Shown here piece after piece: positions 39-14,171 of a stretch of DNA of 64,000 bases. The notes under the pieces were generated by a model. That model was not told where the DNA came from and searched no databases. It saw only the letters and a list, made by a program, of their open reading frames with translations. Position numbers and translations under genes: made by a program. Source of the DNA: an uncultured Bacilli bacterium (GTDB lineage: Bacteria > Bacillota_I > Bacilli_A > RF39 > UBA660); NCBI GenBank assembly GCA_947627435.1, contig CANQWB010000001.1, positions 7,952 through 71,951 on the forward strand, read 5' to 3'. Each line of letters begins with the position of its first letter. Position 1 is the stretch's first letter.

Positions 39-359
39 TCATAGACTCTTTTTGATTTCATCAATTTCATGTTGCATCGCTTGTACCATTTTTTGCAACA
101 TGGCAACAGTTTCTGAAGGAGTAGGGGTTGTTGCATTACTTGTTCCTTGTGCACGTTCTGCTTGAACTTGTTTATAGTAAGCATTGGTACAAAGCACTTG
201 TGCAGTTAACATGAGCCAGTTTCCTAGAGCATTTTGTTCATTGGCTGTTGTATCATCAATGAGTAAATAACCAACAATGACAGCACTAAATGAAAATACT
301 TTGGGGGAGACATCTGGTATAATACGCATAGAATCCCTCCCTATCATAATATATGACAA
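39..359 (-). CDS. hypothetical protein (106 aa) downstream of cotJC
   Basis: Complete ORF with N-terminal hydrophobic stretch, co-oriented with cotJB-cotJC; no recognisable motif. Confidence 0.35.
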   Translation of the reverse strand: MSYIMIGRDSMRIIPDVSPKVFSFSAVIVGYLLIDDTTANEQNALGNWLMLTAQVLCTNAYYKQVQAERAQGTSNATTPTPSETVAMLQKMVQAMQHEIDEIKKSL

Positions 360-3921: not shown

Positions 3922-4050
3922 ATGAATCAACAAAAAATGGGAAAATTTATTGCAGAATTGAGGGTAGAGCACCACTATACACAAAAAGAAATAGGAGATA
4001 AATTAGGAATTTCGGATAACTCTGTATCAAAATGGGAACGCGGACTATGA
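3922..4050 (+). pseudogene. 5-prime fragment (HTH_XRE N-terminus) of an XRE::ABC-ATPase fusion gene disrupted by element insertion
   Basis: Encodes MNQQKMGKFIAELRVEHHYTQKEIGDKLGISDNSVSKWERG then runs into foreign sequence and stops; the missing HTH C-terminus (INAPDIYYLTTLAELFDVTVKELLNGE) reappears in frame at 14122 fused to an ABC ATPase. Confidence 0.65.
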
Positions 4051-4339: not shown

Positions 4340-5620
4340 ATGAATTATGGAATATTTAGAAGTGAGCCAATAATGACTATAAATGATTTAGCACAAATAG
4401 GATCTCATAACAAACGTGAGAAAAAAGCCTATAAAAGTAACCCTAATATTAAATTAGAATTAACGAAAGATAATATAGAATTAGTACCCTTAAAAGAAAA
4501 ATATGTTAAGGGCTTTAAAATGCTTGTAAAAGACTATGAAAAAGAACACAACGAAAGAATGAAAACTGAAAGAGATGATAGAAAACGAACTTTTAATGAA
4601 ATGTTAAATAAATCTAAAAGTGTTGTTGCAGATGAATTAATGTTTACAGCAACACATAAGTTTTTTGATAATATGAGTAAAGAAGAAATAATGAGGTGGG
4701 CTGATACTTGTATGGATTTTGTTTACAATGATTTAGGTTATAAAAAAGAACAAGTATTACACGCAACAATCCACATGGATGAACTAACACCTCACATTCA
4801 TTGTGTAGTTGTTCCACTTGTTAAAAAATTAGATAAAAGAACAAATACTGAAAGATTTACTATTTCAAAAAAACAATATATTAAAGACAATATTCACTTA
4901 TCAGAATTACAAGATGTTTATAATTTAAGATTAAAGGAAGCAGGATTTGAACTAGAACGAGGTATTAAAAATAGTGATAGAAAACACATTAAAATTAAAG
5001 AATTTAAGAAAACCACTAGATATTATGAAAATAAAGTAACCACTATCAATAAAAATCTTGATAATGCTATGAACGATTTTGAAGAAAAAATGAAAACAAC
5101 CAAAAGTACCATTATTGATAAAGAATATGTAAAGGTTAGAAAAGACACTTTTGATAGTATGAATAATGTTATACAAGAAACAAAAAAAGCAATAGAATTT
5201 CAACCTAAAATAGAGCAATTATTTAATGAAGTTAATACCTACACTACAAGTCATCAAACACTAGAAAAAGAAAATAAGAATCTTCAAAGAGAAGTAAAAG
5301 CACTTACTACTAGAAATCAAAACTTAACAAAAGAGAATAACAACCTTAAAACCTATTTAAAAGCCATTTTAGAGGCAATTAAACACTTTTTTAGAGAAAT
5401 ACTACAAATTGGTAATGAACCTACAAAAGAAGCCACTACAAGCGAAATAAAGGACTATTATAATAATGAGGATTTTGACTCCAATGATGTTTATGATATT
5501 TCCAAAGGAACAACCAAAGAAGATGAATTATTTGATTATGCAGAAATTCCTAGTTATTTAAAAACCAGCAAAAAATCTTATAAAGAAAAAGACAAAGATG
5601 ACTACGAAATGAGCCTATAA
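4340..5620 (+). CDS. MobV-family relaxase (plasmid recombination enzyme Mob/Pre)
   Basis: 426 aa; signature HATIHMDELTPHIHCVVVPL (HxDE...PHxH motif III of MobV/Pre relaxases); coiled-coil C-terminus. Confidence 0.85.
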   Translation: MNYGIFRSEPIMTINDLAQIGSHNKREKKAYKSNPNIKLELTKDNIELVPLKEKYVKGFKMLVKDYEKEHNERMKTERDDRKRTFNEMLNKSKSVVADELMFTATHKFFDNMSKEEIMRWADTCMDFVYNDLGYKKEQVLHATIHMDELTPHIHCVVVPLVKKLDKRTNTERFTISKKQYIKDNIHLSELQDVYNLRLKEAGFELERGIKNSDRKHIKIKEFKKTTRYYENKVTTINKNLDNAMNDFEEKMKTTKSTIIDKEYVKVRKDTFDSMNNVIQETKKAIEFQPKIEQLFNEVNTYTTSHQTLEKENKNLQREVKALTTRNQNLTKENNNLKTYLKAILEAIKHFFREILQIGNEPTKEATTSEIKDYYNNEDFDSNDVYDISKGTTKEDELFDYAEIPSYLKTSKKSYKEKDKDDYEMSL

Positions 5621-5662: not shown

Positions 5663-6091
5663 TTATTTTCTTAAAAACTCATCAATAGAAAGATTATGAT
5701 TTTTACAGATTGTATATAAAGTTAATGTTGTTATCAAACTCATACCTATTTCATAATGACTATAAGTAGAACGAGATATAGAACATTCATCAGCAATTTC
5801 TTGTTGAGTTAAGCCTAATTTAGTTCTCAATGATTTTAGTTTCTTTCCAATTTTGACTTGGTTAATCACTATGTTATTTGTATGTTCTTGATTTTCTCTA
5901 GTTAGTCCTAAAACAAAATCTATTGAATAATTAAATTGATTACAGAACTTTACTAATTTCTTTAATGGTATAGAATCATAAGCATTTTCCCAACCACGAA
6001 CTGTTGAATTACTTACACCAAATATATTACCCAATTCAGTTTGTGTCATCTCTAATTCTTCTCTACAATACTTTAAATTATTTCCTATCAT
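5663..6091 (-). CDS. XRE-family transcriptional regulator with two tandem HTH_3 domains
   Basis: Two Cro/C1-type HTH units (QTELGNIFGVSNSTVRGWEN.. and QQEIADECSISRSTYSHYE..). Confidence 0.8.
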   Translation of the reverse strand: MIGNNLKYCREELEMTQTELGNIFGVSNSTVRGWENAYDSIPLKKLVKFCNQFNYSIDFVLGLTRENQEHTNNIVINQVKIGKKLKSLRTKLGLTQQEIADECSISRSTYSHYEIGMSLITTLTLYTICKNHNLSIDEFLRK

Positions 6092-6192
6092 ATATGTTTC
6101 ACCATAATAATTTTCCCATCAAATTTTAATTTGATACGAAAATAGCGGGTAATGTATCAAAAATGTGATATAATCTTTTATAGAAAGGGGAA

Positions 6193-6495
6193 ATGAATAT
6201 GTATTTAAGTTTCAAAGATATTTGTTTATGTGTTTTAAAGGCTCTTATATTAACCTTAATCTTTGTAGCATTAATAGGCTTAATAATGTTTGATTACAAA
6301 ATTGGAATTAATTATTGTGATTTAATGAATATACCGAGAGATTTAGCACTTTCTGTTATGAGTTTAGGTATGGCAATAAATATCACTATTATTATGTTTG
6401 TAATAGAAATAATTGTATTGTATTTTATTATTAAAAAACTTAAACGAATTCAGTTATTTAACAATATTTGTGAATTTTTAAGTATTGATTATTGA
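6193..6495 (+). CDS. small integral membrane protein (3 predicted TM)
   Basis: 100 aa, three hydrophobic helices. Confidence 0.4.
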   Translation: MNMYLSFKDICLCVLKALILTLIFVALIGLIMFDYKIGINYCDLMNIPRDLALSVMSLGMAINITIIMFVIEIIVLYFIIKKLKRIQLFNNICEFLSIDY

Positions 6496-6593
6496 TAAAA
6501 GATTATTAAATCTAGTTAAAATCATTAAGAAAAAGTGATATAATTATATTACAAAGTGATGCAGAAATAGTAATTTGTTGAATAGGAGGAATT

Positions 6594-7814
6594 ATGAAAA
6601 AACAAATTAAAATAATTTTAGTAGTTATAATAAGTCTTATAGTTTTATATGGTGTATTATTCTTTGTTGATATGAACAGAGTTAAGCACTTAAAAAGACC
6701 TATATTTTGTGTAGAAAATGGATATATGGGTAGTATGACAAGATATGATGGTTTAGGATATAAAATAGGTCTTGATATTAACGCAACAACAGGAGAAATA
6801 ACTTATGGACAAATGACTATATTAGGACAAACTATTGTCAAATCATATAGTGAAAATGAAGATAATAAAGCAACAGATGATTATGATAAGCAATTAGTAC
6901 AATGTTTAGAAAGCCAATTAGGAGGCTATCTTGTAACCGAAAAAGATGATTTAATAGAAATACCTTTGAGTGAAATAAAAAATAGTGATAAAGAAAAAAT
7001 CTCCTATTATAAAGGAGTATATGCTAGTAATCATCCAAATAATATTTATGTAATGGTTTTTCCAAAAAATGGAACTTATGAATCTAGTGTAATGAAAGAT
7101 TTTGATAAATATTTTTATGAAAAATTTTCTGTATATCAAAAGTATGAAAGTCCTACTACTCCAACAATTTACATTCATACTAATGACAACGATGTAGATT
7201 TCAAAGAAATCACTAACAAGTGTGTAACTAGGAAAAATACTGAAAATGGTAAATCTATTCCTACAGAAACATTAAATAAAATTAATGACACTACTAAAAT
7301 AATTATAAAATCTAGTCAAGAAGAGTTAGGAACAATAACCGATAAAGAAAAACTGACAGAAATATTAAGTGCTATTTCAAGCAGTAAAAGATATGGCGAA
7401 GTATGTACTTCTGATGGACATGGATTTGAATTTAATATGTATGACAAAAATAATAAACTTATTGATACCATTTATATTTGGGGTGATGGTGCAAGATTAA
7501 TGCCTAAAAGTCTTAATGGTTGTCCTTATGTAACCACAGATAATACTGATTTAAGAAAAATAATTGAAGATACAACTGATTATATATTTTCTGGAATTTT
7601 AGATTTTAGAGATGATATTAATCAAACAGAGCAAACATTAATATACAAAGATGGTAAAAATAGTTATTATTTAAATAGTAAAGATCCTAATGAAATATTG
7701 ATTAAATTTATGTTAAATAATAAAGTAATGACTCTTAAATATGCTTTAGAAAATAAATATATTTCAGCAGAAAAAGTTGCTAGTGAGTATCCAGATATAT
7801 TGATAAGAAAATAA
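6594..7814 (+). CDS. membrane-anchored protein, N-terminal domain paralogous to 8414-8950 (GLGYK motif)
   Basis: N-terminal TM, then KRPIFCVENGYMGSMTRYDGLGYKIGL resembling EPKYCIKIVSNDGSKVTYWGLGYKVIRYV of the downstream paralog. Confidence 0.5.
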   Translation: MKKQIKIILVVIISLIVLYGVLFFVDMNRVKHLKRPIFCVENGYMGSMTRYDGLGYKIGLDINATTGEITYGQMTILGQTIVKSYSENEDNKATDDYDKQLVQCLESQLGGYLVTEKDDLIEIPLSEIKNSDKEKISYYKGVYASNHPNNIYVMVFPKNGTYESSVMKDFDKYFYEKFSVYQKYESPTTPTIYIHTNDNDVDFKEITNKCVTRKNTENGKSIPTETLNKINDTTKIIIKSSQEELGTITDKEKLTEILSAISSSKRYGEVCTSDGHGFEFNMYDKNNKLIDTIYIWGDGARLMPKSLNGCPYVTTDNTDLRKIIEDTTDYIFSGILDFRDDINQTEQTLIYKDGKNSYYLNSKDPNEILIKFMLNNKVMTLKYALENKYISAEKVASEYPDILIRK

Positions 7815-7824
7815 TAAGTTAAAT

Positions 7825-7837
7825 AAATTACAATTTG
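7825..7837. repeat. palindromic motif AAATT-AC-AATTT copy 1, upstream of 7856 gene
   Basis: Perfect inverted repeat immediately followed by GTAAGGGAG RBS. Confidence 0.4.
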
Positions 7838-7855
7838 TAAGGGAGATGTTGTTTT

Positions 7856-8383
7856 ATGGATAATAAGAAAAAAATAGTAATAGGAGTTGTGATTTTAATT
7901 TTGTTAGTAACTATTGGAGGAGTAATTTACTATACTATTTATAAAGATGTTACTGATAGAGAAAACTTTGATGGAAAAAAAGAAAATTTGGGTAATACTC
8001 CAGTAGATACAACAAGTAACAATTTTGATTTTTATATTGAAAAACCAGAAATTCATAATGATATTAGATTTAATGATTATTTCACTTTTAGTGATAGAAA
8101 GATTTATTTAGCAGGTAATATTGAACAATTTTATGTTATAGATGGAAAAACCATGATTTTAAAGGAATATATTTCAAATGCTAATAGAACAATGAATGAT
8201 AGCATTAAATCGATAACTGATAAATTAGAATTAAAAGATACCTTAAAAGATGGAGGAACAAAGATTTACAAATCAAAAGACAAAGATATTACAATGATAG
8301 TATGTAACACTATTAAAAACGATAAAAATATATTTATTGGGGATTATTCTATGGAATATACAGAAGGAGATTGTAAAAACTAA
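7856..8383 (+). CDS. membrane-anchored small protein (175 aa), cassette member
   Basis: N-terminal TM (KKKIVIGVVILILLV..), start context identical to the next gene. Confidence 0.5.
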   Translation: MDNKKKIVIGVVILILLVTIGGVIYYTIYKDVTDRENFDGKKENLGNTPVDTTSNNFDFYIEKPEIHNDIRFNDYFTFSDRKIYLAGNIEQFYVIDGKTMILKEYISNANRTMNDSIKSITDKLELKDTLKDGGTKIYKSKDKDITMIVCNTIKNDKNIFIGDYSMEYTEGDCKN

Positions 8384-8397
8384 CAAATTACAATTTG
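8384..8397. repeat. palindromic motif CAAATT-AC-AATTTG copy 2, upstream of 8414 gene
   Basis: Perfect 6+2+6 inverted repeat followed by GAAAGGGAA RBS. Confidence 0.4.
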
Positions 8398-8413
8398 AAA
8401 GGGAAATGCGTTT

Positions 8414-8950
8414 ATGAAAAAGAAAATATATATTGGTGCAGGAATAATTTTAGTTATACTTATAGTTGCAGGAATCATAACAAACTATGCAGATAGTGGT
8501 AGAGTAACAACAGGACATGAGCCAAAGTATTGTATTAAAATAGTTAGTAATGATGGTAGTAAAGTGACTTATTGGGGATTAGGTTATAAAGTTATTAGAT
8601 ATGTTGGAGTATCTCCAAATGAGCCTTATGAAAATAATATTGGTGTAAAAATGGGAAGTTGGTTTATGAATTATGATTTACCAAATGAAAAAGTCATCAC
8701 AATAGAATATGAAGGTAAAACAATAGAAATAAATAATTATGATGACATCAATAAAATTTACAATATATTAGTTAATTCAAAATACAACTCTGAAATATGT
8801 GATGGGATAAATACTCACAAAATAATAATAGACAATGAAGTATATTATTTAAAAGAGAGTTGTCAAGAAATTCAAAAAGGAGATAAACAATCAAAAATAT
8901 CAAAAGAAGATTTAGACACAATATTAAAAATAATAGATAGTAATAAGTAA
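8414..8950 (+). CDS. membrane-anchored small protein (178 aa), cassette member
   Basis: N-terminal TM (KKKIYIGAGIILVILIV..), GLGYK motif shared with 6594 gene. Confidence 0.5.
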   Translation: MKKKIYIGAGIILVILIVAGIITNYADSGRVTTGHEPKYCIKIVSNDGSKVTYWGLGYKVIRYVGVSPNEPYENNIGVKMGSWFMNYDLPNEKVITIEYEGKTIEINNYDDINKIYNILVNSKYNSEICDGINTHKIIIDNEVYYLKESCQEIQKGDKQSKISKEDLDTILKIIDSNK

Positions 8951-8952
8951 TA

Positions 8953-8966
8953 CAAATTACAATTTA
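8953..8966. repeat. palindromic motif CAAATT-AC-AATTTA copy 3 (imperfect), after last cassette gene
   Basis: Third copy of the motif, not followed by an ORF. Confidence 0.35.
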
Positions 8967-8971
8967 TAGAA

Positions 8972-9385
8972 CAGATTAAAGCGAGAACCGAGCCAAAAGA
9001 AATTACATAACTAATGGCTCGGTTAAAACCTAGTTCTTGGCGACTAGGTAACACACTACGATATTGGCAAAGCCAATAACGATGTGTGCAAAGGGTGATC
9101 CCTTTTGAAACCCCTTTTAAGCAACATATTACAAAGTTTCACAATGTAATATTGTTGCCTTTTTATTTCACTTACGTTTCATAAAAAGAAAAAAAGGACT
9201 ACAACTTTCATCAGCATAGCTGACAAAACGTGATAGCCTTTTTTTAATGAAAATAACCTTAATGCTAAAGTCTTACGACTAAAGCAAAAAGGTTATTTTT
9301 TTCTTTTGTTATCACAAAAGTATTGATGAATAAAATTACTTTTCCCACTTTCATTGTCTTACGACAACAAAACGTGTTCGTAATT
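8972..9385. other. GC-enriched, highly structured non-coding region (candidate oriT/sso or ncRNA) within the element
   Basis: No ORF; multiple stem-loops (AACCGAGCC..GGCTCGGTT 9 bp; CCTAGT..ACTAGG; CAACATATTACA..TGTAATATTGTTG; AATAACCTT..AAGGTTATT+T-run); GTCTTACGAC direct repeat x2; local GC well above flanks. Confidence 0.4.
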
Positions 9386-9832
9386 TTATTTCTTCTTATT
9401 ATATGTTTTTTCTAATAATCTTGCAGTATCTCTCTTTGCTACATAAATTGCTAAATAAGTAAACACTTCATATACTACCATTACAATAAAGAATCCGATT
9501 ATAATATATTGATTATGTGTGATGCTTTGTTTAACCCATTCAGCACCCTGAATAATTAAATATACTACACCAAAGAATACAGTTGATAATGTAGTAGAGT
9601 CATCAAAAGATCGTTGTATCACTCTTGATTCTTCTTTATCAACATTTAATCCTCTTACACTCCATCTTGCAATTACCATTAACACCAACACCATTAAAAA
9701 TGGAGTAATAACCCAATATAGATTATAACCATAATCATTTTTGAGTATTAAAACGAATACTAAACTTACTAACATAAAAATATTTAATAATACGATTCCA
9801 ATATTTCTTATTAGATTTTTATTTCTTTGCAT
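9386..9832 (-). CDS. integral membrane protein (4 TM), co-transcribed with XRE repressor
   Basis: 148 aa, four hydrophobic segments; overlaps stop of upstream XRE gene by 14 nt. Confidence 0.5.
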   Translation of the reverse strand: MQRNKNLIRNIGIVLLNIFMLVSLVFVLILKNDYGYNLYWVITPFLMVLVLMVIARWSVRGLNVDKEESRVIQRSFDDSTTLSTVFFGVVYLIIQGAEWVKQSITHNQYIIIGFFIVMVVYEVFTYLAIYVAKRDTARLLEKTYNKKK

Positions 9833-10337
9833 TTTTGTTTCTCTCCTTTACTTTTAAACTTAGAATTAAATTAACAATTTCATTAGACGTATTGATTTGA
9901 TATTTTGTATCTTCTATTGTATGTAGTAGTAATTCTTTTTCACTTTCTAATATGTTTTGCTTTTTTAAATTTTCTTCACACGACTTAACTAATTGTTCTG
10001 AATTAGTAATACTACCTAACACATTGATTTCAGCCTCATTTAATTCATCTAAATTCATTTTTTCATAGTAATCCTTAATAAATGGATTTAATGAACTAAC
10101 TTCCATACCCAAACCTATCATGTACATCATTTCATTATAATTTACGTTTATGTGTCTACTAATCTTTCTTAAAGTTTTAGGGTTAGGTATTTCTCTTTCT
10201 CCTGATTCAATTTTAGATAATTCAGCATTACTAATATTTGCAATTTTAGCAAGTTGTCTTTGAGAAAGTTTTGCTTTTTCTCGTGCTTCAGCGATTATCT
10301 CGCCAATCTTTTTTTCTTGCATTGTAATACACCTCAC
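9819..10337 (-). CDS. XRE/cI-like HTH repressor
   Basis: HTH_3 (LSQRQLAKIANISNAELSKIESGEREIPNPKTLRKISRHINV); divergent from sigma-A promoter TTGACA-17-TATATT at 10413-10441. Confidence 0.75.
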   Translation of the reverse strand: MRCITMQEKKIGEIIAEAREKAKLSQRQLAKIANISNAELSKIESGEREIPNPKTLRKISRHINVNYNEMMYMIGLGMEVSSLNPFIKDYYEKMNLDELNEAEINVLGSITNSEQLVKSCEENLKKQNILESEKELLLHTIEDTKYQINTSNEIVNLILSLKVKERNKNAKK

Positions 10338-11261: not shown

Positions 11262-11519
11262 ATGGGTTGCATTATACTAGATGATTCCATAGTTAAAAGT
11301 AATAAGATAAATTCCACAGAAAAACTTGTATATGGTGTTATTCTATCACTTGCGAATAATAAAGGTTATTGTTATGCAAGTAATGATTATATAAGTGATA
11401 AAGTAAACCTATCTAAAAGAACGATTACTAATTCTATCAGCGAACTAAAAAGAGCAAATTATATAAGAGTTGAATACGTAAACTTTGAAAGACACATCTA
11501 TCCCATACAAACCGAGTAG
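11262..11519 (+). CDS. HTH_36 domain protein
   Basis: STEKLVYGVILSLANNKGYCYASNDYISDKVNLSKRTITNSISELKRANYI matches the HTH_36 pattern. Confidence 0.55.
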   Translation: MGCIILDDSIVKSNKINSTEKLVYGVILSLANNKGYCYASNDYISDKVNLSKRTITNSISELKRANYIRVEYVNFERHIYPIQTE

Positions 11520-12413: not shown

Positions 12414-14171
12414 ATGTCTAACATTAAAAGAAAGAGAGGTAAAATGGCGATTGTTGAGGTTATTAAAAGTAATAATCTCATAACCGAAGAAATCAATACT
12501 GAAAATAAACTAAAGAAAGTATGTGCATATTGTAGAGTTTCAACAGATAGTGAGGAACAATTAACAAGTTATTCATCACAAATAAAACATTATTCAGCAC
12601 AGATAAAAGCGAATCCAAATTGGGAGTTTGTAGGAATATATGCTGATGAGGGTATAAGTGGAACACAAGTTAAAAAACGTACTGAATTTCAAAGAATGAT
12701 AAACGATGCTTTAAATGGTAAGATAGATATTATTATAGCAAAATCAATATCAAGATTTGCAAGAAATACTATTGATACCTTAAAGTATGTAAGAGATTTA
12801 AGAGAACGTAAAGTTGATGTGTATTTTGAAAAGGAAAATATTCACACATTAGAACTTGAAAGTGAAATGTTTTTAACACTCTTTAGTGCATTTGCTCAAG
12901 CTGAAAGTGAATCAACTTCTCAAAACGTTAAAATGGGAATAAAAGCAATGATGAAACGAGGAGAATTTGTTGGTAAAGCAGAATGCTATGGCTATAAATG
13001 GAATAAGGAAACGAAGACACTAGAAGTTTACGAAGAACAAGCAAGTGTTGTTAGAATGATATTTAATTGGTATGCTGATGGAGTTGGAACAAGAACGATT
13101 GCTAATAGACTTAATGAAAAAGGTTATAAAACTTATACAGGTAAAAATTTTACTCAACAAGGTGTAAGAGAAATGATTTCTAATGAAAAATATGTTGGAG
13201 ATTTATTGTGTCAAAAGTATTATACGATAAGTCCTCTAACACATAAGAAAACAAGAAATTATGGCGAACGTGAAAAATATTATGTCAAAGATCATCATAC
13301 ACCTATCATTACAAGAAAAGTTTGGGACAAAGTACAAGAAATACTAACAAAAAGAAGTAAGAAGATAATCCCTGATGGCAAAAGTCATGCAAGTAAATTC
13401 ACAAGTCAATATGCTTTTAGTTCTAAAATAGAATGTGGACTATGTGGAACAAATTATGCTCGTAGAGTTAGTGGCAAGTATAAAGATGGAAGTCAAAAAG
13501 TCTATTGGGCTTGTTATCATAAAGTAGTTAAGAAAAGTAATTGTGAACACTCTATAACCTTTAGAGAAGATTTTTTAAAAGATTTATTCATACAAATTTA
13601 TAATTCTATTGTGGAGAAAAAGCATAAGACAAAAGATAAGTTATTAAAGGCAATACGTGAAACTCTAGAAAGTGATGATAGCAAGACTAAAATTGATAAA
13701 CTTTATAAAGAACTAGAATCACAACAAAAAAGATTATCTAATTTAATTGATATGAAACTAGATGACTATGAGAATAAAAATGCTTATACTGAAAAGGAAA
13801 AAGAAATAAATGGTAAAATCAAAAGCCTAAATGATGAAATCTATCAATTAGAGTTAGAAAACAATAATAACAAAGAAATTTCTAAAAGACTAAAAGAGAT
13901 AGAAGAAGTTGTGTTTGAAAGTGAGAAATCTTTAAAAGAATTTGATGAGGCAACATTTGAAAATTTAGTTGAGAAAATCATAATAGGAGAAAAAGATGAG
14001 AATGGAAATGAGAATCCTAATGTGATTAGATTTATTTTAAAAATTGGTGGAGATTATAAAGCCATAATCTCCCCAAATAATAATAGTATTGATGATGTGT
14101 CATTTGAACAAGGAAACAGGTATCAATGCACCCGATATTTATTACTTAACTACATTAGCAGAATTATTTGA
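12414..14171 (+). CDS. large serine recombinase (resolvase/invertase N-terminal domain + recombinase domain + zinc ribbon + coiled coil)
   Basis: 585 aa; catalytic region YCRVSTDSEEQ...IIAKSISRFARN; Cys-rich CGLCGTNYARR...CYHK zinc ribbon; coiled-coil; reads across the right junction of the element. Confidence 0.9.
   Translation: MSNIKRKRGKMAIVEVIKSNNLITEEINTENKLKKVCAYCRVSTDSEEQLTSYSSQIKHYSAQIKANPNWEFVGIYADEGISGTQVKKRTEFQRMINDALNGKIDIIIAKSISRFARNTIDTLKYVRDLRERKVDVYFEKENIHTLELESEMFLTLFSAFAQAESESTSQNVKMGIKAMMKRGEFVGKAECYGYKWNKETKTLEVYEEQASVVRMIFNWYADGVGTRTIANRLNEKGYKTYTGKNFTQQGVREMISNEKYVGDLLCQKYYTISPLTHKKTRNYGEREKYYVKDHHTPIITRKVWDKVQEILTKRSKKIIPDGKSHASKFTSQYAFSSKIECGLCGTNYARRVSGKYKDGSQKVYWACYHKVVKKSNCEHSITFREDFLKDLFIQIYNSIVEKKHKTKDKLLKAIRETLESDDSKTKIDKLYKELESQQKRLSNLIDMKLDDYENKNAYTEKEKEINGKIKSLNDEIYQLELENNNNKEISKRLKEIEEVVFESEKSLKEFDEATFENLVEKIIIGEKDENGNENPNVIRFILKIGGDYKAIISPNNNSIDDVSFEQGNRYQCTRYLLLNYISRII

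Follow-up and report, generated by a model that had tools for sequence, protein, structure and literature searches.

Three consecutive genes in a 64,000-nt stretch of DNA from an uncultured Bacilli bacterium (contig CANQWB010000001.1; the whole stretch is referred to here as the window) probably form a three-cassette, integron-like array, which is cargo of an integrative mobilizable element (IME) with a MobV relaxase and a large serine recombinase. Each gene is followed by a copy of a short palindromic motif, and because the breakpoints between related loci fall on this motif, the three open reading frames (ORF1 to ORF3) are best read from the sequences as three separate cassettes with the palindrome as their seam, the cassettes on either side of the motif assorting independently. 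The original prediction, made from the window alone, had described the region as a cassette of three paralogous membrane-anchored proteins, of which the word 'cassette' fits more literally than was meant. On the basis of the sequence comparisons below, we regard as established the independent assortment of cassettes, the confinement of breakpoints to the motif, a motif-flanked insertion or deletion of a single cassette, cassette turnover within a lineage and the strand specificity of the motif, as well as a promoter-B-cassette-A-terminator anatomy which is consistent across loci.

The exact unit common to the three motif copies in the window is the 12-mer AAATTACAATTT (A motif), which has 5-bp arms and is found at 7825-7836, 8385-8396 and 8954-8965, always on the plus strand and about 1-10 nt past three successive stop codons. 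Three exact copies compare with 0.36 expected, and a count of three was reached in 1/100 shuffles. The predicted perfect 14-mer with 6-bp arms (CAAATTACAATTTG) was confirmed at 8384-8397 only, as the first copy (TAAATTACAATTTG, 7824-7837) and the third copy (CAAATTACAATTTA) each differ from it by one outer base. The second motif listed here (B motif), located 21 nt past the promoter-like site, and the A-like variant on the minus strand had both been overlooked in the original prediction.

6516..6544, plus strand: promoter-like site of sigma-A type (TTAAAA-17 nt-TATAAT, TG ahead), probable array promoter
6565..6576, plus strand: B motif AAATAGTAATTT, followed by G and the ORF1 ribosome binding site (RBS); joins the promoter module to the first cassette
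6594..7814, plus strand: cassette 1, ORF1, 406 aa; transmembrane (TM) anchor, GLGYK N-module and a ~310-aa extracytoplasmic part without recognised fold
7825..7836, plus strand: A motif, junction J1 (AAATTACAATTT), 10 nt past the ORF1 stop, then the ORF2 RBS
7856..8383, plus strand: cassette 2, ORF2, 175 aa; TM anchor and a ~125-aa C-domain
8385..8396, plus strand: A motif, junction J2, 1 nt past the ORF2 stop, then the ORF3 RBS
8414..8950, plus strand: cassette 3, ORF3, 178 aa; TM anchor, GLGYK N-module and an 85-aa C-domain
8954..8965, plus strand: A motif, junction J3, at the 3' end of the last cassette; no gene after it
6121..6132, minus strand: A-like variant AAATTAAAATTT with the Shine-Dalgarno (SD)-like run GATGGGAAAA, 29 nt upstream of a divergent XRE gene

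As predicted, the first two copies run straight into an RBS (gTAAGGGAGatg and GAAAGGGAAatg, respectively). The stop-to-start distances are 41 and 30 nt, neither J1 nor J2 contains a promoter or a terminator, and the two junctions are similar across ~24 nt. A cassette unit would consist of its own SD sequence and ORF and would end ~0-10 nt past the stop codon with AAATTACAA, a full junction then reading AAATTACAA|TTT(G)-SD. One upstream promoter would read the array, with the promoter module joined to the first cassette by AAATAGTAA|TTTG. The 12-mer would be the site of gain, loss and exchange of cassettes among many mobile genetic elements (MGEs) of low-GC gut Bacillota: a cassette with one motif copy would be excised when two junctions in direct repeat recombine, and would be inserted when it recombines with a junction of another array, which follows the logic of integrons using a short linear site and neither IntI nor attC.

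Mosaic breakpoints at the junction motif

One genome per species was scanned with the pattern AAATTACAATTTGAAAGNGA (motif plus RBS, with the SD requirement leading to under-sampling), and the combination was found in at least 119 genome stretches, mostly labelled Bacilli, Clostridium/Clostridia, Tenericutes/Mollicutes or Erysipelotrichales and coming from gut metagenome-assembled genomes (MAGs) of ~26% G+C; among the matches listed we counted ~90 Bacillota assemblies. For comparison 127 loci were fetched, the material consisting of assemblies, mostly MAGs. Between two and seven exact 12-mers are present in 72 of these loci (70 without two CRISPR loci), nearly all on one strand and at a spacing of 177-2000 bp, with 270 exact copies on the array strand versus 2 on the opposite strand, and in one locus (L009) the motif stands ahead of four successive unrelated genes. 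The motif is not specific to the window, and it is also found at array ends. The two CRISPR loci (L063 and L120, both Flavobacteriales) were rejected as arrays, their CRISPR repeats containing the pattern by coincidence.

The sequences on either side of the motif were compared between 232 unique A-motif contexts, with a side counted as shared at 90% or more identity over 80 nt and as differing at less than 50%. There were 94 pairs with a shared upstream and a different downstream side, 116 pairs with the reverse, and only 12 pairs in which both sides were shared. On the side that differs, identity breaks off 0-2 nt away from the motif, just as in unrelated pairs. Because 62 of the 94 pairs diverge from the first base past the 12-mer, the identity shared at the exchange is put at ~12 nt. 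The B motif is likewise a breakpoint, with 6 + 19 switching pairs. In a test which did not depend on the motif, all loci were compared by megablast, and 327 of the 605 internal ends (54%) of blocks of at least 150 bp and at least 93% identity were located within ±4 nt of an A or B motif, versus 1.33% of positions. Chimeric assembly is an unlikely cause of these motif-bounded switches, since 12 nt is far below the k-mers used by assemblers.

Individual cassettes show the same boundaries. The gene for a 283-aa relative of ORF3 (P0114), a protein recorded with identical sequence on 242 contigs, recurs as the same, unchanged cassette in five or more unrelated MGE contexts, including type IV secretion system/integrative and conjugative elements (ICEs), tyrosine-integrase elements and a MOBQ-type element, and the gene is 100% identical between contexts at the DNA level. 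Its left-hand identity begins at AAATAGTAAGTT, ~8 nt after a TATAAT box that differs per context, and its right-hand identity ends inside the motif after AAATTACAA|, with positions 10-12 and all positions beyond varying with the downstream neighbour. The ORF3 family is in this way among the most widely disseminated cassettes. Two further loci (L045 and L033) differ by a precise insertion or deletion of one 195-bp cassette between 25-nt direct repeats (AAATTACAATTTGAAAGTGAGATGA). In L147-L150, which have the same host flank, 592-aa serine recombinase and first cassettes, the sequences part precisely at the motif copy at 7836. Four continuations follow there, among them one with a 55-aa protein, one with a 47-aa membrane peptide and Imm11, and one with that peptide and VanZ.

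In L149 (7836-8600) the 47-aa membrane-peptide cassette is present twice in one array, on both sides of the VanZ cassette, a pattern that integration of a two-cassette circle would produce. A crossover signal at motif position 7, seen with one-mismatch variants, was discarded, its source being a look-alike in a coding region (AAATTAGAATTT).

The anatomy of the junctions was compared across the same loci. Among the 115 motif copies not picked by the scan pattern, which were used for the distance to the stop codon, 84 (~73%) begin no more than 6 nt away from the stop ahead of them (from a 2-nt overlap to 6 nt past), and the stop TAA often provides the first two A residues of the motif. Conservation is confined to 12 nt: positions -40 to -1 carry no information, and downstream there is only an SD-like purine run (GAAAGKGAG), with the outer C and G of the 14-mer not conserved (C 33% and T 39% at position -1, G 60% at position +12). 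One-mismatch variants at real junctions concentrate at positions 10-12 (GTT, TAT, TCT), and therefore the 9-nt AAATTACAA is taken as the invariant part. Of the 222 unique A contexts examined for what comes next, 140 have an ORF start at +13 to +48 and 28 are followed by a hairpin and T-run without ORF, corresponding to array ends; 135 of the 222 lead directly into an ORF without a terminator. Inside arrays the motif is present at 116-126 of the 166 gene junctions; the 40 motif-less junctions have a median gap of 13.5 nt and so lie between genes within multi-gene cassettes.

The B motif reads AAATAGTAA[T/G]TT followed by G and the SD, and was found 7-24 nt after a TGnTATAAT box in 39/64 cases, versus 19/201 A motifs with a -10-like box nearby. 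Promoter plus B modules are located upstream of first cassettes and also inside arrays, and composite A-terminator-promoter-B junctions are common in the related loci. Partial tandem duplications of the motif (AAATTACAAATTACAATTT) were noted at L118:4046, L029:1409 and L090:2983.

Proposed mechanism of exchange and alternative readings

We infer that the exchange is directed to its site by an enzyme rather than resulting from general recombination, because the identity at most switches is only ~12 nt, because the upstream cassette keeps the invariant 9 nt also where a terminator is all that follows, and because the same seam has been used hundreds of times; a circular cassette would be the intermediate. 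Candidate enzymes are a large serine recombinase of an MGE and an RNA-guided IS110-type recombinase, the latter because the recognition span of such enzymes, ~12-14 nt (PMC11208160), would fit a 12-nt site.

With regard to IS110, a copy of the window element on a sister contig (L005) contains an IS110-family insertion sequence (IS) inside J2, arranged as CAAATTACAA|IS|AATTTGAAAGGG with AA duplicated and with the right end of the IS abutting AATTTG. The left end of the same IS follows AAATTACAA in three loci, whose upstream cassettes differ:

L005:3690-5262; L084:~398-640; L079:~55-110 (reverse complement): IS110-family insertions, 400-aa DEDD transposase

The position-exact repeat insertions and the duplicated 2-bp core indicate that the seam motif serves as a target site of this IS110-family element. 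More distant IS110-family transposases are encoded in array loci L037, L039, L079, L095 and L126, and the left non-coding region of the IS holds target-like strings (GGCAAATTACAG and CTAACAAATTGACAG) which may function as guides within a bridge or seek RNA. With regard to the serine recombinase, a ~450-nt non-coding region (L147:3524-3970) separates the gene for the 592-aa large serine recombinase from the array promoter in L147 and is also present in L016, L033 and L148-L151. It is limited to this platform, is missing from the window, folds better than shuffled sequences (z = -4.4) and contains four copies of TTTGTAATACA(A), an 11-bp palindrome which has a TACAA half in common with the junction motif. 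The large serine recombinase heading the array of the L147 platform and the IS110-type enzyme are treated here as leads only. The TTGTAATACAA repeats beside the L147 recombinase were rejected as a general array feature, as they are limited to the L147 platform and are not enriched in the window.

A more far-reaching version, which we advance tentatively, is that gut Bacillota have a cassette capture system equivalent to integrons in function and mechanistically unrelated to them, using a 12-nt strand-specific site. Exchange would in that case be carried out by a class of enzyme not known for it, or without any cis-linked enzyme. The candidates would be a recombinase of the RNA-guided IS110 type, working in trans on A x A sites, and a large serine recombinase together with an accessory non-coding region such as that of L147, with its four TTTGTAATACA copies.

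Several points weigh against an array assembled by site-directed exchange. No recombinase is consistently tied to the arrays; the neighbours most often found in the 8-kb loci are XRE (19/69), ABC ATPase (10) and large serine recombinase (6). Twelve conserved bp with unconserved flanks are short for the site of a protein-only recombinase, and of the motif only positions 10-12 could be allotted, to the downstream module, the one-mismatch variants not placing the crossover within positions 1-9. A tight position beside the SD, an orientation shared with the genes and a B variant in the 5' untranslated region (UTR) would fit an RNA or DNA signal related to expression equally well. Finally, neither a circular cassette nor an empty site was directly observed in the assemblies, and all of the comparison material consists of metagenome assemblies.

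The alternative which survives best, although we consider it unlikely, is that the motif acts mainly as an expression signal, with shuffling a by-product of short-homology recombination between its many copies, similar to the PeSL elements of T4-type phages. Roles proposed for such a signal are a strand-specific RNA element for intercistronic processing or stability, a translational enhancer or re-initiation aid ahead of the SD, and a sigma-related -10-like TACAAT. This would explain why the motif is always co-oriented with genes and abuts the SD, with the G at +12 starting GAAAGGAGG-type SDs, and why the B variant is found in 5' UTRs 7-24 nt after -10 boxes and has the AATTTG-SD half in common with the A motif; the composite A-terminator-promoter-B junctions are PeSL-like (PMC2839356, PMC4122927), the repeat common to many junctions reaches 24-25 nt once the SD is counted, and a dedicated recombinase was not found in the loci. 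However, the invariant 9 nt travel with the upstream cassette and persist before terminators, where no gene needs them, and the tightly coupled genes within multi-gene cassettes (the 40 junctions with a median gap of 13.5 nt) do without the motif. Furthermore, an identity of ~12 nt in 62/94 switching pairs is short for RecA-type recombination, and in the window J1 and J2 have neither promoter nor terminator. Expression signal and cassette exchange are not mutually exclusive.

It is improbable that shuffling is driven by the IS110-family elements which target the motif, with copies in junctions of different arrays acting as portable homology, precise excision leaving clean chimeric junctions, and the motif itself there beforehand for another reason. 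The same IS after AAATTACAA in three junctions with a duplicated AA core, and the recurrence of IS110-family transposases in L037, L039, L079, L095 and L126, are in line with this, as are the RNA guidance of IS110/IS1111 elements and their excision in circular form (PMC11208160, PMC11187229), whereas such an IS is present in only ~7 of the ~125 loci, and neither the motif at every junction nor the breakpoints at the B motif would be explained.

That the motif is an operator for a dimeric XRE/helix-turn-helix (HTH) repressor of the element, as originally predicted, is more improbable still. The 5 + 5 dyad symmetry, the frequency of XRE genes in and around arrays and the position of the B motif just downstream of promoters are compatible with an operator, and read on both strands the A-like variant AAATTAAAATTT forms a perfect palindrome CAAATTTTAATTTG (6120-6133) 29 nt upstream of the XRE gene in the window. 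In contrast, the 270:2 strand bias and the invariant, asymmetric AC centre are not expected of a symmetric dimer site, the outer C/G of the 14-mer is not conserved, most copies are intercistronic and promoterless (-10-like box in 19/201 A versus 39/64 B motifs), the motif persists before terminators and is conserved across MGEs with unrelated regulators, and the breakpoints would be left without explanation. In the minus-strand reading the AAATTAAAATTT site is a one-mismatch junction motif followed by an SD-like run, and did not recur in the other loci; palindrome CAAATTTTAATTTG may be a genuine operator, or else mark the seam of an XRE cassette in inverted orientation.

Tandem duplication of one ancestral gene, with the junctions as paralogous intergenic DNA, finds some support in the N-module common to ORF1 and ORF3 and in the ~24-nt similarity of J1 and J2, but ORF2 is unrelated, the same 12-mer separates ~100 unrelated gene families in other arrays, and similarity ends at the motif edges, and we count it as refuted by the breakpoint tests. 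Resemblances to a dif/Xer site, to Fur/Zur half-boxes, to a ComK box and to a MazF site were also rejected, as the matches are poor.

Comparison with known cassette systems

The arrays have several features in common with integrons. The cassettes are co-oriented, mostly promoterless and probably read from an upstream promoter, after which the B motif may be the counterpart of attI, although promoter plus B modules are also found inside arrays; the recombination site is at the 3' end of the cassette, just past the stop codon, and the boundaries of the independent cassettes fall within it; and the cassettes recur in many arrays in varying order, with heterogeneous cargo including GNATs and an aminoglycoside nucleotidyltransferase. 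The attC sites of integrons are imperfect inverted repeats of 57-141 nt (R''-L''...L'-R') at the 3' ends of cassettes, whereas only 12 nt are conserved here, and the stop-to-start distances of 30-41 nt leave no room for a folded site of that size. An IntI-type tyrosine recombinase is not encoded by the neighbouring genes in the window (MobV, XRE, large serine recombinase), and no Phage_integrase was found beside the arrays in L147-L151, where there is a serine recombinase instead. Unlike integrons, the hosts are Bacillota, the arrays are located within cargo regions of ICEs and IMEs, and promoter and terminator modules are interspersed. A last likeness concerns a parasite of the arrays rather than the arrays themselves: IS1111-attC elements target integron attC sites (PMC11187229), and the cassette site described here is targeted by an IS110-family element.

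The rAID-1 arrays of Bacteroidales are orphan-immunity arrays with a recombinase of the XerD family at their head and cargo dominated by type VI secretion system immunity genes (bioRxiv 10.1101/471110). Both systems are arrays on gut MGEs with signs of active gene acquisition and with repetitive intergenic sequences 'reminiscent of integrons', and at least one Imm11 cassette family is present here, but phylum and motif are different, no conserved XerD-family recombinase was found in the window or in L147-L151, and the cargo is not dominated by immunity genes. The PeSL elements of T4-type phages are promoter plus stem-loop terminator units which flank small accessory ORFs, and recombination between their copies leads to insertion, deletion or replacement of ORFs (PMC2839356, PMC4122927). 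Short conserved motifs flank ORFs here as well, and composite terminator-promoter junctions are also present, but most junctions are a bare 12-mer running from stop codon to SD, without a sigma-70 promoter and terminator at each motif, and the carriers are conjugative or mobilizable Bacillota elements rather than lytic phages.

The pdif (XerC/D) modules of Acinetobacter plasmids have 28-bp XerC-spacer-XerD sites in alternating orientation; they resemble the cassettes described here in being small modules, bounded by short sites, which are shuffled without an adjacent dedicated recombinase, whereas our sites are 12 nt long, are all in direct orientation and have no convincing similarity to dif. 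Literature searches covering the 12-mer and integron-like systems of Firmicutes returned nothing relevant. Cassette arrays with conserved seams are already known, but no description of this layout was found in those searches, and its mechanism could prove categorically new.

To our knowledge, integrons are essentially absent from Gram-positive bacteria, so that no comparable framework is available for cargo assembly in Bacillota ICEs and IMEs. The 12-nt junction would offer a handle for locating, bounding and counting the mobile cargo genes of gut Firmicutes: by our count it marks hundreds of cassettes in ~90 species-level gut genomes, with at least one cassette for aminoglycoside resistance and with orphan immunity genes among the cargo, and it would make the search for a new recombination activity directly testable. 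If a cassette capture system of this kind is indeed present, ICEs and IMEs would have in the arrays a way of passing on resistance, immunity and envelope genes that had not been seen before.

Cargo proteins and carrier element

The three ORFs each open with a hydrophobic helix, as predicted (residues 2-30 and 3-28 in the AlphaFold2 (AF2) helices). Only part of the predicted paralogy was confirmed: the N-terminal ~60 aa, including Y.GLGYK, are indeed common to ORF1 and ORF3 (BLASTP E = 4e-6, 33% identity), whereas the resemblance of ORF2 to the other two is confined to the TM segment. Database relatives number >1,100 for ORF3, 220 for ORF1 and 218 for ORF2, and none of these is functionally annotated, the few names given being 'hypothetical protein'; in a profile-free scan of 1.8 billion representatives, ORF3 was represented by only 247 clusters. 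The homologues of ORF1 are mostly 344-aa lipoproteins without the N-module, the C-domain of ORF2 is elsewhere fused to DUF3221 or Big_14 lipoprotein modules, and the N-module (~1-93) and C-domain (~85-178) of ORF3 turn up separately in other architectures. Many relatives have a lipobox of the LTGC or VVGC type, and in these lipoproteins the same C-domains are joined to DUF3221 or Big_14. The AF2 models were confident for residues 95-406 of ORF1 and 95-178 of ORF3, with the 85-aa C-domain of ORF3 modelled at a predicted local distance difference test (pLDDT) score of ~90, and were not confident for the shared N-module. Because of these relatives, lipoboxes, domain fusions and models, ORF1 to ORF3 are predicted to be surface-tethered, domain-shuffled cargo proteins.

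Searches of ORF1 to ORF3 against Pfam, NCBIfam and PHROGs gave nothing above threshold, hence no immunity (Imm) or toxin domain; Foldseek searches of the models against the PDB gave no match with E < 0.01, no toxin gene was seen among the annotated neighbours, and tblastn with ORF3 found no match in the PLSDB plasmids and INPHARED phages. An envelope-protective role (immunity or exclusion) is possible for these proteins, and found no support here. The question for ORF1 to ORF3 shifts from the function of an operon to cargo genes which travel separately.

The cargo of the related arrays consists mostly of genes other than immunity genes. The 92 cassette families include GNAT acetyltransferases (7), CPBP/Rce1 proteases (4), alpha/beta hydrolases (3), VanZ proteins (2) and MBL hydrolases (2), as well as an ANT(2'') aminoglycoside nucleotidyltransferase (E = 2.6e-60), a DNA-alkylation repair enzyme, exporters and a nitroreductase, with many small membrane peptides and ORFans among the remaining families. 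Few families matched defence models. Of the few cassette families that were scanned one by one, one is an Imm11 immunity family, and the 25 Pfam families seen most often in the 92 do not include Imm11. The commonest cassette encodes a 55-aa helical protein (MNNEVKNAIE...EAIEYL...) without a family match, present in 24/69 array loci versus 1/56 single-motif loci, and most often the same cassette goes on to encode a membrane-anchored XRE protein:

L045:4333-4500, L045:5357-5524, L033:5866-6033: examples of the 55-aa protein cassette

The window has a G+C content of ~27%, and the array is located in an integrated mobilizable element with a tRNA-His gene nearby; at least eight other assemblies carry the same element with the same three genes. 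The large serine recombinase gene lies 3.4 kb downstream of the array, and its product is a possible actor in cassette exchange. The predicted four HTH proteins agree with the ~4 found in the element: XRE proteins at 5663-6091 and 9819-10337, HTH_3 at ~3922-4050 and HTH_36 at 11262-11519, the last two read from the identical element L001. A 100-aa multi-pass membrane ORF without family match (6193-6495, plus strand) is located between the XRE gene and the array promoter.

4340..5620, plus strand: MobV (Mob_Pre) relaxase, marks the carrier as a mobilizable element
5663..6091, minus strand: XRE-family regulator with two HTH_3 domains; context only
8986..9166, plus strand: structured non-coding element of five hairpins, the last an intrinsic terminator, directly after J3
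12414..14171, plus strand: large serine recombinase (Resolvase + Recombinase + Zn_ribbon_recom), same gene as L001:10001-11758

Rfam searches of the whole window returned tRNAs alone, with nothing within 5.5-10.5 kb and accordingly no match for the hairpin block at 8986-9166. This block of ~180 nt has an RNA minimum free energy of -68.9 kcal/mol (z = -7.1) and is conserved at 97.5% in L024 and 85% in L114, with changes mostly in the loops, which makes it a candidate non-coding RNA; at this end of the array it appears to stand in for the usual module of motif plus GAGCAGAT-hairpin terminator.

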